64,000 bases of DNA from an uncultured Candidatus Saccharibacteria bacterium (GTDB taxonomy: Bacteria > Patescibacteriota > Minisyncoccia > UBA6257 > 2-01-FULL-56-20), in assembly GCA_964361095.1 (NCBI GenBank), contig CAYHZA010000007.1, positions 3,010-67,009 on the forward strand, read 5' to 3'. A program made the position numbers and the translations under genes. This document shows positions 11,045-55,361 of the stretch, in pieces (position 1 is the first letter of the stretch; every line of letters begins with the position of its first letter). Under the pieces are notes generated by a model. That model made no database searches, was not told the origin of the DNA, and saw only the letters and a program-made list of their open reading frames with translations.

Positions 11045-11193
11045 CCCCGTAACATTACTGGGGTTCGCCTCATTCAACCTGTCGATGCAAGCCAATGTAA
11101 ACCACGCTATTTTTCCTTATGCGTCTAGTGGCAATAAAACAAAGGAACATATTGAACGAGGCGGCAGGTTGACGCCCCAGTAATGTTACGGGG
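11045..11193. repeat. 19-bp inverted repeats CCCCGTAACATTACTGGGG / CCCCAGTAATGTTACGGGG flanking about 110 bp
   Basis: Exact reverse complements at 11045-11063 and 11175-11193; the right arm abuts TTGACT. Confidence 0.7.
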
Positions 11194-11326: not shown

Positions 11327-11348
11327 AGGGGAGTCGCCTCTATCTTTT

Positions 11349-11377
11349 TTGGCAAAAACCCCGTATCCATTTATAAT
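11349..11377 (+). promoter_or_regulatory. near-consensus sigma-70 promoter TTGGCA-N17-TATAAT
   Basis: -35 at 11349-11354, perfect -10 TATAAT at 11372-11377; transcription runs into the repeat region towards murB. Confidence 0.55.
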
Positions 11378-11396
11378 GTTGATACGTTCGGCACAT

Positions 11397-11866
11397 GTCC
11401 ATTTTGGTGGCCGTGAGGAGAGCACTTGTTGGTACATTCATAAAAGTCCATATTAGTGGTCACAGGGAGAGCACTCATTAACAAGGGTTCATCGTGGTGG
11501 TTGTGAGGAGAGCACTCATTCAAAACAAACAGAATTGGAGGTCACCACTCGTAACCACCACGATGGATCGATGGAAAACAGAATTGTTCCCGATTTGTCC
11601 CCGATCCGTCAGTTGACGGAGAGGGGATACAAATTGTCATGCCTACGGCAGATCTTCCGAAGGGATGACAATCCCGCATACACTGAGCTTGTCGAAGTGC
11701 TCTGCGGGAGAGGTCACCACCTGTGACCACTAATATGGATTAATGAAGAACAGAACTGTTCCTCAACCGTCCCGCTACGGCGGGACGAACGGGATCGCAC
11801 AAATCTAACCTCAAGCTTCGCTTCTCGGAGATTTGAGTGAGACGTCACTCCTCACGGCCACCAAAG
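11397..11866 (+). repeat. three tandem roughly 34-nt units (core GTGAGGAGAGCACT) followed by their inverted partners in nested order
   Basis: Units at 11397-11430, 11446-11479, 11487-11520; reverse-complement partners at 11553-11565, 11720-11739, 11848-11864; extra local hairpins. Confidence 0.6.
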
Positions 11867-46833: not shown

Positions 46834-48012
46834 ATGTTTATTAAGCTTTCAATTGCGGGAGGTATTATTATTGTACTGGGAATGACCGCGCTCGCGTTTG
46901 GAGGAGCTCTGCCTTTTTCTCGCACGTTATTTCTTGAAGAACAGAAGGAAGCCCGATCGATTCAAGATATTGCGAATCGCGCGCTTGTCGTGCAACGGGA
47001 AGAGCTTTCAATAGAGGAGAGTTCAAAAAACACCACCGCGAAAATTCAGAGCGATGTATCATTAAAAAATAAGAAAGAAATTTGCACCGGCGCCGATCTG
47101 CAAAATTTTGACTGTTACGAAGCATACTATAAAAATCTTGTCCAAAAGAATGGAGTAAAAGAAGCATTTGTCGACTTGCGGAGTCGTTATGGAGAAAGCG
47201 CGTATGTGAAATCCCAGTGTCATCCGATCACGCACGTAATCGGCCGCGTGGCGGCGGAGGAATCGCCTGATGTCGCGTCGGCATACGCCAAGGGGGATAG
47301 TTTTTGTTGGTCGGGATATTATCATGGCGTCATGGAGGGAATTATCGGAAAGATCGGCAGAGAAACTTTAACGGCGCAGATGAACGGAATTTGTAAAGTA
47401 TTGCGTGACAAAGAACCATATATTTTTGATCACTACAACTGCGTGCATGGTTTAGGGCATGGGGTTATGGCAATTACGAATGATGAACTTTTTGACTCTT
47501 TAAAATACTGCGAGAACCTAACCGATTCATGGGAGCGCTCATCGTGCGCTGGAGGGGTCTTTATGGAAAACATTATTATTGACGGGAAGAATCATACGAC
47601 AAAATATCTGAAGCTTTCCGAACCTCTGTATCCTTGTACGGCGGTTTCGGAGGAACATAAAACTTCCTGTTATCTGATGCAGACTTCATATATCCTAAAA
47701 GCTGTTGGGTATAATTTTGGAAAAGTTTTCGAGTGGTGCGGCAAGGCAGATAGTAACTATATTGATATTTGTTATCAAAGCTTGGGTCGGGACGCGTCCG
47801 GGCAGAGTATCAGCAATGTTGAGAAAACCAAAACCACATGTATGTTGGGCAAAGACGAACGACAACAATCCAACTGTGTTATCGGCGCGGTGAAGGATTT
47901 TGTGTCATATTTCCATTCGGACAAACAGGCGAGAGAGTTGTGTGCCGCGCTTCCCGAGAATCTAGAGCCCGTGTGTATATCGACAACAGTGTCATACTAC
48001 GAAATTTTTTAA
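46834..48012 (+). CDS. hypothetical Cys-rich secreted or membrane-anchored protein
   Basis: N-terminal TM, then about 20 Cys spread over 390 aa. Confidence 0.45.
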   Translation: MFIKLSIAGGIIIVLGMTALAFGGALPFSRTLFLEEQKEARSIQDIANRALVVQREELSIEESSKNTTAKIQSDVSLKNKKEICTGADLQNFDCYEAYYKNLVQKNGVKEAFVDLRSRYGESAYVKSQCHPITHVIGRVAAEESPDVASAYAKGDSFCWSGYYHGVMEGIIGKIGRETLTAQMNGICKVLRDKEPYIFDHYNCVHGLGHGVMAITNDELFDSLKYCENLTDSWERSSCAGGVFMENIIIDGKNHTTKYLKLSEPLYPCTAVSEEHKTSCYLMQTSYILKAVGYNFGKVFEWCGKADSNYIDICYQSLGRDASGQSISNVEKTKTTCMLGKDERQQSNCVIGAVKDFVSYFHSDKQARELCAALPENLEPVCISTTVSYYEIF

Positions 48013-48084
48013 TTGATTTTTACGTTGCCTGATATTATACTTAGCTTCAGCAACGCCTCACCCGAGACTTCATAAGGAGGAGGT

Positions 48085-48402
48085 ATGTCTCAGAATCTAA
48101 CATTTGGCTCTTTGTCCGCACCTGTTCAACGCGCATTTTCCCTGCTCGCCCGAAAACCGATATTGTTTCCTTGCGTGGCGCTTGTTCCGACAACGCCAGA
48201 TGGATCCTCTCAAGTTGGAACTGGACTCAGGGAATACTACAAGTGGCGCAGTCTTTCTAGGTGGCAGCGTTTTTCCCACTGGAGATACGGGTGGGATGCC
48301 GAGACGTACGACGCGTTCACCAACTGGTGGTCCTCCGGCAGAGTTTGCCCGGATCCCGAACGACAGGCACTCCTCGCGAGCTATCTTTCTCGCGTGGTAT
48401 AG
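48085..48402 (+). CDS. hypothetical Trp-rich small protein on a GC-rich, SD-led island
   Basis: AGGAGGAGG then ATG; GC-rich; perfect terminator 48412-48448. Confidence 0.45.
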   Translation: MSQNLTFGSLSAPVQRAFSLLARKPILFPCVALVPTTPDGSSQVGTGLREYYKWRSLSRWQRFSHWRYGWDAETYDAFTNWWSSGRVCPDPERQALLASYLSRVV

Positions 48403-48411
48403 GTCCACCCC

Positions 48412-48448
48412 CTCATGGGCATTTCTACGGAGATGCCCATTTTTTGAC
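48412..48448 (+). terminator. intrinsic terminator
   Basis: atgggcatttctacggagatgcccat + TTTTTTG. Confidence 0.8.
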
Positions 48449-48521
48449 TTTTTTTCTTTCGGAACTTAGACTTGTCGTATAACCTCTTATGTCCTTGGGA
48501 CGAGGGGAGATTGTATTATTT

Positions 48522-48566
48522 ATGTTCAAACTCGTTTCAAAATTCAAGCCAGACGGCGACCCCGCA
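48522..48566 (+). pseudogene. diverged fragment of the uvrB 5' end (MFKLVSKFKPDGDP), 90 nt upstream of the intact uvrB
   Basis: 12 of 14 residues match uvrB residues 6-19 (FKLVSKFRPSGDQ) but with GC-rich synonymous codons; loses similarity after GDP. Confidence 0.4.
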
Positions 48567-48635
48567 ACAAACCGAGCGTTTTGTTTTGCACGCTTCCGTA
48601 TGGAACGGATACCTACCGCTCGGTTAGTGACGGGG
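48560..48635. repeat. split palindromic element CCCCGCAACAAACCGAG ... CTCGGTTAGTGACGGGG with an internal hairpin
   Basis: 14 of 17 reverse-complement match; 42-nt spacer containing ttccgt-atgg-aacgga. Confidence 0.45.
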
Positions 48636-48654
48636 CAAGCCAGCCTACATAACA

Positions 48655-50649
48655 ATGTATAGTGCTAATTTTAAGTTGGTTTCTAAATTTAGACCGTCTG
48701 GAGATCAACCGAAGGCAATCGAACAGCTGACCGAAGGTCTTAGAAAGGGTTACCGCCATCAGACGCTTTTGGGCGTAACGGGAAGCGGGAAGACATTTAC
48801 TGTCGCGAACGTGATTGAGAAAATTCAAAAGCCGACGCTCGTGATCGCCCACAATAAAACGCTTGCCGCCCAGCTTTGCAACGAGTTTCGGGAACTCTTT
48901 CCCGAAAATTCGGTGAATTATTTCGTTTCTTATTACGATTATTACCAGCCGGAGGCGTATATGCCGACGACCGATACGTATATTGGCAAGGAGGCGATGA
49001 TTAACGACGAGATCGATAAATTGCGCCACGCGGCAACGGCGGCGCTTTTAACTCGTAAAGACGTGATTGTTGTCGCGTCAGTTTCCTGTATTTACGGCCT
49101 TGGCGCACCCGAGGTATACGCGGAAAATATAATCCATTTCAAACGAGGCGGCACCTTGGATCGCAGAAAGTTGATGCGCAAACTTGTCGAACTTCAGTTC
49201 CATCGCACGAACGCGGATTTAAAACGTGGAACATTTCGGCTTCGAGGCGATAAATGGGAAATTATGCCGCCGGATCGAGAAATTATTTATGACATTGAAG
49301 TAAAAAACGGAATCATCGAGGAGATTTATGAAGTAGACCCCGTGATCGGTTTTCGGTCCGGGATGACGCCGCAAAAGGATGAATTTTATGTTGCGCCGGC
49401 AAAACATTTTATTACACCGCCCCTTGAGCGTGAGTGGGCGATCAAAGCGATTCAAGAGGAATTAAAAGAGCGGTTGAATTTCTTTGAGCGCACGGGCAAG
49501 CTTTTGGAAGCCGAACGATTGGAGCGGCGGACCAAGTATGATCTCGCGATGATACGGGAAGTAGGATATTGCCATGGTATCGAGAATTACTCCCGGCATC
49601 TTTCGGGTCGCGCCGTGGGCGAGCCGCCCGAGACGCTTCTCGATTATTTCAAGGAAGATTTTCTTACCGTAATCGACGAATCGCATGTTACCGTCTCCCA
49701 ACTTGGGGGAATGTATGAAGGAGACGCTTCTCGCAAAAGAACGCTTATCGAATACGGTTTCCGTTTACCGTCCGCGGCGGATAACCGCCCCCTCAGATCC
49801 TCCGAGTTCGAGAAGCGGATCGGGCAAACGATTTATACCTCCGCGACACCCAGCTCTTATGAGCGTGAAAAGAGTGAGCGGATTGTCGAGCAAATTGTCC
49901 GACCGACGGGATTGATTGATCCGAAGATTACCATCCGTCCCGCCCGCGGCCAGGTTGATGATCTTATTCCTCGGATCGAGGAGCGTGTGGCAAGGAAAGA
50001 ACGGGTGCTTGTTACGACGCTTACGAAAAAAATGGCGGAAGATTTAAGTGCTTATCTGGAAGAAAAAAAGATGAAGGTGAATTATCTGCACAGCGACGTA
50101 AAAACATTGGATAGGATTCGGATTTTGACGGACTTACGAAAAGGAAAATATGATATATTGGTCGGCGTGAATCTTTTGCGTGAAGGTTTAGATTTGCCCG
50201 AAGTTTCGCTCGTCGCGATCTTGGATGCGGATAAAGAAGGGTTTTTGCGGAGCGAGACGTCCCTTATCCAGACAATCGGCCGAGCGGCGCGAAATGTCGG
50301 AGGTGAAGTGTTGATGTATGCCGACAAAATTACCGGTTCGGTGGAACGTGCCGTGTATGAGACCGAACGTCGCCGCGAAGTTCAACTTGCGTATAACAAA
50401 AAACATGGCATAACTCCCACGACAATCGAGAAGGCGATCAAGGATATTTTACCCGATGTGGAAGCAGTCTTGAATTTAGAGATGAAACCTTTGCCGAAGT
50501 CGCGCAAGGCAATGGACGAATTGATCCGCCAAAAAGAAAAAGAAATGAGAGACGCCGCGAATAATTTGGATTTCGAACTCGCGGCAATATTACGGGATGA
50601 GATCAGGGCATTGGCAAAAAAAGCGAATGTAAAACATAAGAAAGGATAA
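48655..50649 (+). CDS. uvrB: excinuclease ABC subunit B
   Basis: GVTGSGKTFT Walker A, beta-hairpin region, C-terminal UVR domain (ANNLDFELAAILRDEI). Confidence 0.9.
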   Translation: MYSANFKLVSKFRPSGDQPKAIEQLTEGLRKGYRHQTLLGVTGSGKTFTVANVIEKIQKPTLVIAHNKTLAAQLCNEFRELFPENSVNYFVSYYDYYQPEAYMPTTDTYIGKEAMINDEIDKLRHAATAALLTRKDVIVVASVSCIYGLGAPEVYAENIIHFKRGGTLDRRKLMRKLVELQFHRTNADLKRGTFRLRGDKWEIMPPDREIIYDIEVKNGIIEEIYEVDPVIGFRSGMTPQKDEFYVAPAKHFITPPLEREWAIKAIQEELKERLNFFERTGKLLEAERLERRTKYDLAMIREVGYCHGIENYSRHLSGRAVGEPPETLLDYFKEDFLTVIDESHVTVSQLGGMYEGDASRKRTLIEYGFRLPSAADNRPLRSSEFEKRIGQTIYTSATPSSYEREKSERIVEQIVRPTGLIDPKITIRPARGQVDDLIPRIEERVARKERVLVTTLTKKMAEDLSAYLEEKKMKVNYLHSDVKTLDRIRILTDLRKGKYDILVGVNLLREGLDLPEVSLVAILDADKEGFLRSETSLIQTIGRAARNVGGEVLMYADKITGSVERAVYETERRREVQLAYNKKHGITPTTIEKAIKDILPDVEAVLNLEMKPLPKSRKAMDELIRQKEKEMRDAANNLDFELAAILRDEIRALAKKANVKHKKG

Positions 50650-54860: not shown

Positions 54861-55361
54861 GTGCGATTCTTGATGGGCGCGTTTTTGTTTTTTGTTGGCG
54901 TGGTATCTCTCGCGGTTGCCGAAGATATGCCGTCCGATCCGAACAGAATATCCCTTCTTTTCGCGGCTTCGGAGTTCTCGCTTGACCCCGCAATTCACTC
55001 CAAATTTTTCTTTGAAGATTACCGTCCCGATAAGATACGCTTCATCGATATACGAGACTTTTGTAGCCGGAAATGCGTGATGTCGGTGGCCATGATCTCT
55101 TGGGTAGGCGCCGCCATAGAATCCTATCGTGGCGACGGTAAGTTCAGACTTAGATCACGCGTTAAGCAAGAGCCGACAGTAAGCGCCAGTTTTGAAGTTA
55201 GTGACGGACAACGAGCAATATTCATTCCTCGCCGTTCAATGCCACGTATTGTCTTTCCGCTTGAAAATGGGAATTCACTACTTGCAGTTCATATCACTGG
55301 CAACGGCATTGCTTTGACGTATGCGCGCACGTTTGGTCCACCGAGGCCGAAGCGTCACTAA
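54861..55361 (+). CDS. hypothetical secreted protein
   Basis: N-terminal signal peptide MRFLMGAFLFFVGVVSLAVA. Confidence 0.4.
   Translation: MRFLMGAFLFFVGVVSLAVAEDMPSDPNRISLLFAASEFSLDPAIHSKFFFEDYRPDKIRFIDIRDFCSRKCVMSVAMISWVGAAIESYRGDGKFRLRSRVKQEPTVSASFEVSDGQRAIFIPRRSMPRIVFPLENGNSLLAVHITGNGIALTYARTFGPPRPKRH

Follow-up and report, generated by a model that had tools for sequence, protein, structure and literature searches.

A putative leader made of an upstream open reading frame and a conserved hairpin precedes uvrB in a Candidatus Saccharibacteria bacterium and in three further lineages

The DNA analysed here, hereafter the window, is a stretch of 64,000 nucleotides (nt) from an uncultured Candidatus Saccharibacteria bacterium (assembly GCA_964361095.1, contig CAYHZA010000007.1), and positions given without a contig name refer to it. 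It corresponds to a Hainich groundwater contig (ENA ERZ1292643) of a Patescibacteria genome of Parcubacteria type. Directly ahead of its nucleotide-excision-repair gene uvrB lies a second, diverged copy of the uvrB start, which opens a short upstream open reading frame (uORF) running through an RNA hairpin. The same layout was found in four distantly related groundwater bacterial lineages, namely the window, L165/L170, L177 and L175. Our preferred reading, which we hold with somewhat better than even confidence, is that uORF and hairpin form a conserved cis-acting leader that sets or regulates the amount of UvrB, and a regulatory role for this leader is moderately likely. Judged by comparison of sequences, it would be best described as a previously undescribed element; in the literature we found no uvrB leader, no uvrB upstream ORF and no uvrB RNA motif.

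The evidence begins with the duplicated start itself. Copy 1, FKLVSKFKPDGD, matches residues 6-17 of UvrB (copy 2, FKLVSKFRPSGD) at 10 of 12 positions with 25.8 bits in tblastn, where it is the best non-self match of UvrB against the window (E = 0.24 for the whole window and 6e-5 for the 655 bp upstream only). A profile built from 100-odd UvrB N-termini recovers this 13-residue stretch (E 3.5e-5); past GD, no frame gives a match. A second N-terminal piece was seen at none of 80 other uvrB loci, and a search of all window ORFs of at least 100 amino acids (aa) for a repeat of their own N-terminus within the 400 nt upstream left uvrB as the only real gene with a match. The two copies differ at 14 of 36 nt, almost all of the differences being synonymous, and random placement of 14 changes never retained as many residues (0 of 200,000 trials, p<5e-6). 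Together these tests rule out a chance match as the source of copy 1, and the second uvrB start is real and, with corrected numbers, statistically sound. An earlier, sequence-only reading of this DNA had counted 12 of 14 residues identical to UvrB residues 6-19; its match is real and survives tblastn, profile and randomisation, yet its count has to be lowered to the above figure, or to 10 of 14 if M and P are included. It had also seen the similarity end after GDP, and the homology indeed stops exactly at Gly-Asp; the upstream ORF that it reported is present, with 46 codons up to the stop listed in Table 1 rather than 47. Its view that this is no recent local duplication agrees with copies that have diverged under coding constraint.

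The extra DNA in the window amounts to the 145 nt between the copies, 48561 to 48705. Tandem duplication, whether of the leader together with the start or of roughly the first 45 codons, was considered and rejected: neither the upstream leader nor uvrB codons 19-62 significantly resemble the spacer, and translation of the spacer in other frames gave no UvrB match; a simple tandem duplication of the leader cannot be shown. Codon usage was uninformative on which of the two copies is foreign. A protein search with the N-terminus only returned short fragments and no further example of the 'SANFKLVSKFRPSGDQ' type.

Besides the window, the layout is carried by L165 (JGI; upstream FtsZ and RmuC), whose UvrB, P0003, is 80% identical to that of the window by BLASTP and 84-85% over the aligned core; by L170, L166 and L171, further assemblies near-identical to L165 (UvrB P0003-5); by L177 (GCA_016182105.1, Candidatus Liptonbacteria; UvrB P0030; upstream DUF5667 and a 277-aa gene); and by L175 and L176 (JGI and ENA, respectively; UvrB P0077; upstream TspO and VIT1). 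The order is common to the carriers: a G-rich box, an ATG, the motif F.[LI].SKF[KE]P.GD, a hairpin that runs from the GAC codon with the consensus CCCCGCAMCAAAMCRAGC ... GCUC..UU..UGACGGGGC, a C/A-rich linker of 13-25 nt and the real uvrB ATG, after which four or five codons lead to a second F.LVSKF.P.GDQP. Within copy 1, TCAAAATT is invariant in all four, and the junction GAC|CCCCGCA is identical in all carriers. An assembly artefact is ruled out by independent assemblies from several sites. As a separate observation, independent assemblies break at identical positions, L167-L169 at about window position 48925 and L166/L171 at 108 nt before the uvrB ATG; the breaks probably come from k-mers shared among co-occurring UvrB genes, and polymorphism of 5′-end alleles could also produce them. 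They were not used as evidence.

The hairpin has a fixed position, always between copy 1 and the uvrB ATG, and ends 13-25 nt before the latter. In single-sequence folding its minimum free energy is -42.6 kcal/mol in the window (z -3.7) and -43.4 kcal/mol in L165 (z -2.6). When the four lineages are aligned, 92% of cells are paired, compared with 33-41% in slid controls; 6 of the 25 pairs are compensatory, with changes on both sides, and the covariation score was reached by none of 500 shuffles. With no more than four sequences, this covariation supports the structure without establishing it. That the structure belongs to the plus strand, i.e. to the mRNA, is suggested by the G-U pairs and by a minus-strand score that is far weaker. 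Rfam gave no match at gathering thresholds in the window, and positions 47950-48720 returned noise only (E at least 1.1). A covariance model built from the four leaders found only carriers in 1.45 Mb of related loci; its weak extra matches all lie on true uvrB 5′ coding regions, because copy 1 is homologous to the uvrB start. No second leader copy was seen in the 64 kb of the window, in these 1.45 Mb or in viral contigs. Two further candidate structures were rejected: a second hairpin in uvrB codons 9-19, predicted in the window and L165, is not significant and by eye is absent from L177 and L162, and a long-range pairing between CCAGACGG and CCGUCUGG, possible in the window, is not conserved in L165.

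Two other structures deserve mention in their own right. At 11045-11193 the window holds a long palindrome with perfect 19-nt arms (CCCCGTAACATTACTGGGG and CCCCAGTAATGTTACGGGG) 111 nt apart, whose ~10 terminal nt resemble the uvrB hairpin arms (CCCCGCAACA... and ...GTGACGGGG) only there, possibly by chance, and which is followed by a TTGACTTTTT box resembling the uvrB promoter. In L173 (1240-1405), which lacks the layout described above and whose UvrB P0044 has the N-terminus MFKLISKFKPDGDQ, uvrB is preceded by a different long leader with its own hairpins, such as CACCCTGAGCGAGGTCGAAGGGTG just before the ATG. Going by this case, structured uvrB leaders may be common in the group.

How much of this similarity could persist by descent alone can be judged from uvrB, in which fourfold-degenerate sites are 30-44% identical among the carriers, i.e. 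at saturation. Leader sequences, by contrast, agree at 67-80% of positions and have few indels, and the window and L165, whose leaders are closest, also have the closest UvrB proteins. Between these two, copy 1 differs at 11 of 36 nt and keeps 9 of 12 residues (p=6e-4); the first ~20 residues of the uORF are constrained at the residue level and the remainder varies. On these comparisons the leader appears to be maintained by selection. It is unlikely that the locus is instead a neutral relic, in which a single old rearrangement, be it duplication of part of the 5′ end or illegitimate recombination, facilitated by homology, with the 5′ region of a foreign uvrB, left a tolerated dead stub and a spacer while UvrB starts independently at 48655. 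Such an origin would agree with copies that diverged under coding constraint, as expected if one of them came from another functional uvrB, with starts lacking a Shine-Dalgarno (SD) sequence, which are normal in this genome, and with the absence of the element from several relatives; moreover, one-sided recombination of this kind, which leaves gene-end stubs, is documented (PMC3240628). However, a neutral stretch of 145 nt should be unrecognisable at the fourfold identity observed, whereas this one retains the above similarity, compensatory pairs and an open ORF. Copy 1, likewise, continues to change between carriers as coding sequence does, and the spacer resembles neither the leader nor the uvrB coding sequence.

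One part of the leader has to be read differently. Window 48627-48720 and L165 3374-3467 form a block of ~100 nt, comprising the hairpin 3′ arm, the linker and uvrB codons 1-22, that is about 95% identical and has a sharp right edge after codon 22. All 9 fourfold sites in the first 27 codons are identical, compared with about 41% identity at the uvrB fourfold sites of this pair. The linker is variable in L177 and L175, and therefore the block suggests more recent gene conversion between the window and L165 rather than constraint.

As for the start signals (Table 1), the upstream ATG opens MFKLVSKFKPDGDP..., and the translation of the ORF begins MFKLVSKFKPDGDPATNRAF... The G-rich box ahead of it may be a long-spaced SD site. 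The uORF has 46, 50, 37 and 43 codons in the window, L165, L177 and L175, respectively, and, despite loop indels that shift the frame, stays open through the whole hairpin in all four. In the window (ATGTATAG) and in L165 its stop overlaps the uvrB start, whereas in L177 and L175 it is a conserved UGA within the hairpin 3′ arm and lies a few tens of nt ahead of the uvrB ATG. The uORF has two of the features expected of a coupled upstream ORF, namely plausible start signals (the ancestral ATG and the conserved G-rich box) and conservation in all four carriers. Its peptide has no homologues, the single match (P0241) being a repeat-inflated chance match, and the frame was missed by gene callers in most contigs and called only in L175. 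Judging from the starts of 29 long ORFs in the window, most genes here have no SD sequence; CCCT or TCCT stands before many of the starts, and strong SD sequences occur at only two ORFs, 38874 and 48085.

Table 1. Features of the uvrB upstream region in the window
Feature	Position	Strand	Remarks
Native lineage-specific small gene, 105 aa	48085..48402	+	promoter-like site 48013-48041; perfect SD; terminator 48415-48440; adjoins the leader and is not part of it
Promoter-like site of uvrB, TTGACT-17-TAGACT	48444..48472	+	TTTTTGACTTTT box kept in L162 and L165
G-rich box GAGGGGAG	48502..48509	+	12 nt before the upstream ATG; kept in carriers and in L162 (GCGGGGTG)
Upstream ORF, 46 codons and TAG stop	48522..48662	+	begins where uvrB started ancestrally; passes through the hairpin; stop 48660-48662 overlaps uvrB codons 2-3
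Copy 1, FKLVSKFKPDGD	48525..48560	+	uvrB-derived part of the upstream ORF; UvrB homology stops at GAC 48558-48560
Conserved RNA hairpin, ~85 nt	48555..48641	+	core arms 48560-48578 and 48617-48635
C/A-rich, G-poor linker	48642..48654	+	between hairpin and uvrB ATG; no SD site
Working uvrB, 664 aa, full domain set	48655..50649	+	copy 2, FKLVSKFRPSGD, at 48670-48705

From this arrangement we infer translation of the uORF, reinitiation and a regulatory effect, which could work as follows. Transcription from the native uvrB promoter would yield an mRNA with two starts. Ribosomes would load at the old uvrB start, 48522, and translate the uORF, whose first 13 codons are the retained copy of the UvrB N-terminus, and this translation would melt the hairpin that begins at the Gly-Asp codons. 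They would stop in or just after the hairpin 3′ arm, in the window at a stop codon overlapping the real uvrB AUG. UvrB would then be made from the second start, 13 nt past the hairpin, whether ribosomes reinitiate there, load directly on the unstructured C/A-rich linker or do both. The hairpin would limit direct loading, and hairpin and uORF traffic would together set the rate. The idea that a short upstream ORF acts on uvrB was raised in the sequence-only reading as a secondary possibility, and it is the one that the present findings support.

Several points weigh against this scheme. It gives no reason for the residues of copy 1, rather than its bases, being conserved; the uvrB start codon lies outside the hairpin; and the overlap of stop and start is confined to the window and L165, L177 and L175 lacking it. 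The SD-less uvrB ATG is no proof of dependence on the uORF, because most genes here are SD-less. In addition, only four independent lineages have the leader and five relatives do not, so that several losses or gains are needed.

The closest known arrangements are coupled upstream ORFs, such as the translationally coupled regulatory upstream ORF of the iraD leader in E. coli (PMC5574718), and termination-reinitiation without a downstream SD has been described in bacteria (PMC9955659). The uvrB leader shares with them a short leader ORF, a stop overlapping or near the main start, an SD-less main start and a structured leader. It differs in that its uORF opens with a preserved copy of the N-terminus encoded by the main gene itself and in that the stop position is not conserved among carriers, and any coupling is here putative. 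Monitoring-substrate or arrest-peptide leaders, of which SecM-secA, MifM-yidC2 and VemP-secDF2 are examples, likewise combine a uORF whose peptide sequence is relevant with a stem-loop before the regulated gene. Perhaps the uORF makes a mimic of the UvrB N-terminus whose ribosomal handling tunes uvrB translation in that manner; this would account for the residue-level constraint on the first ~20 uORF residues while the rest varies, and for a hairpin directly downstream. We nevertheless consider such a nascent-peptide sensor improbable. No conserved arrest motif is found at the C-terminal end, the uORF ends differ and their C-terminal halves are unrelated in the four carriers, and the uvrB start is not hidden, the stem-loop excluding the ribosome binding region of uvrB. 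Moreover, the UvrB N-terminus is not known to have a partner.

A further way of using copy 1 would be long-range programmed bypassing, with take-off at the GAC at the hairpin base and landing on the matching Asp codon 145 nt downstream (48703-48705). Were this true, a UvrB with the N-terminus of copy 1 (MFKLVSKFKPDGDQPK...) would exist beside the form started at 48655 (MYSANFK...), and the coding constraint on copy 1, the end of homology at Gly-Asp and the beginning of the hairpin there would all be explained. Phage T4 gene 60, in which programmed translational bypassing skips a 50 nt gap, offers a parallel, as the uvrB leader also has a hairpin at a potential take-off codon (GAC in all four carriers) and a matching Asp codon (GAT or GAC) before the CAA-CC at which UvrB resumes. 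The gap here is nonetheless 145 nt rather than 50 nt, the codon after GAC is CCC and not a stop, and the gap holds a complete conserved second start with its N-terminal codons, making bypassing unnecessary. We regard it as very unlikely.

Concerning the origin of the leader, an old event would have split the uvrB 5′ end, through partial duplication or one-sided recombination. Five relatives have a single uvrB start, namely L162, L172 (P0042), L173 (P0044), L174 (P0028) and L086; an N-terminal extension of P0042/P0051, examined as another possible upstream copy, proved to be translated terminator and promoter with a chance resemblance. A neighbour-joining (NJ) tree of UvrB from which the N-terminus was omitted groups the window with P0001, which has no leader, and P0003, which has one, in a single clade with a short internal branch; P0030 lies elsewhere, and P0077, left out of the tree, is no closer to the other carriers than non-carriers are. 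Since carriers are patchy in the UvrB tree, the leader is either old with several losses or has moved between lineages. Loss would be simple: the two copies are in frame, and a crossover between them would excise the 145 nt while uvrB stayed intact behind its native promoter; such clean loss by recombination would explain the patchy distribution. The single start of L162 is compatible with a chimera left by a crossover of this kind, although this cannot be proved.

Movement between lineages would suit a small mobile or cis-mobilisable cassette that inserts after the Gly-Asp codons and brings the hairpin and a replacement uvrB start, so that the target survives and copy 1 is each host's own former start. 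The patchy distribution, including non-carrier P0001 inside the window/P0003 clade, would fit this, as would the identical junction in all carriers, the coding-like differences of copy 1 between hosts and the ~100-nt block nearly identical in the window and L165. We doubt it strongly all the same. With no second copy in the window, in the related loci or in viral contigs, the leader does not behave like a miniature inverted-repeat transposable element (MITE) or a repetitive extragenic palindromic (REP) sequence, and it shows no transposon-type terminal repeats or target duplication. There is no recombinase gene nearby, the neighbours being a sigma factor, DUF5667, DUF167, small genes and uvrA. 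Leader divergence roughly tracks UvrB divergence, and the invariance of TCAAAATT in the four carriers is unexpected for independent host sequences. Integrative elements with a replacement gene end are known from the dusA-targeting islands. Like these and like recombination stubs, the uvrB locus has a displaced, diverged 5′ copy beside an intact gene whose 5′ end perhaps came from elsewhere; unlike them, it holds no foreign cargo or recombinase and its copies are only 145 nt apart. It also differs from a one-off scar by being conserved, with covariation, across deep lineages.

The DNA upstream of the leader was examined with regard to another origin proposed in the sequence-only reading, which took the stub for a scar at the edge of imported foreign DNA including a foreign GC-rich gene at 48085-48402. 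The closest full-length UvrB to that of the window, P0001 (85-86% identical), lies on contig L162, which shares with the window the gene order VTT-domain gene, PG-binding gene, sigma factor, DUF5667 and 392-aa gene. By blastn, window 47185-48550 is continuous with L162 5421-6785, and window 48670-50603 aligns to L162 6760-8714. Contained in the first block are the 392-aa gene, the 105-aa gene together with a promoter, SD and terminator of its own and, ahead of uvrB, the promoter of the latter, the G-rich box and the ATG. As had been suggested, relatives were searched for an uninterrupted uvrB upstream region, and L162 has one, with a single uvrB start and no duplication. Because 47185-48550 is colinear with this duplication-free relative, the upstream DNA is native, and because L162 runs from the same block into its single start, the upstream ATG of the window marks the ancestral uvrB start position.

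The 105-aa gene is likewise kept in L162, with 73 of 103 residues identical and an in-frame 6-nt indel. The frame led by its perfect SD (AAGGAGGAGG) is the only one open in both, and its terminator shows a compensatory stem change between the two; the nucleotide differences are spread near-evenly across codon positions (22/18/30). Its product matches nothing in Pfam, and a search of 5.8 billion proteins gave no homologue; conservation is seen only in the syntenic L162, and no gene caller reported the gene. A non-coding RNA gene in this GC-rich stretch was rejected, there being no Rfam, transfer RNA or transfer-messenger RNA match and the SD-led frame being open in the window and L162. We conclude that this looks like a real lineage-specific gene and no import.

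Import as the source of the stub is thus left with a slightly raised local GC (53-56%, compared with about 47%), which other parts of the window also reach, and with a 105-aa product that has no database homologue. Apart from the colinearity with L162, which places the stub on native DNA, the stub is also found before uvrB in lineages whose upstream genes are entirely different, and it is neither lineage-specific nor neutrally decaying, its substitutions being coding-like. The scar is further contradicted by three more lineages that have this upstream ORF and an identical junction although their uvrB synonymous sites are saturated; conservation of the ORF among relatives is an outcome that the sequence-only reading had itself named as refuting. 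We regard this origin as refuted and give it next to no credence. Downstream of uvrB, uvrA follows from 50755 and uvrC near 55321. Elsewhere in the window, a gene-free stretch of ~840 bp contains at 11340-11800 several hairpins and, at intervals, at least three repeats of GTGAGGAGAGCACT plus one copy in inverted orientation, and Rfam returned nothing at gathering thresholds over this stretch.

A practical point is that gene callers miss both the uORF and the 105-aa gene in most of these contigs. The design of the leader is unusual, as its uORF re-uses the N-terminus of the protein whose gene follows, and the two in-frame copies permit a clean loss, which gives a simple picture of how leaders may come and go. 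Regulation of DNA repair in Patescibacteria (Candidate Phyla Radiation bacteria) is almost wholly uncharted, and the leader described here would be gene-specific for the nucleotide-excision-repair gene uvrB.

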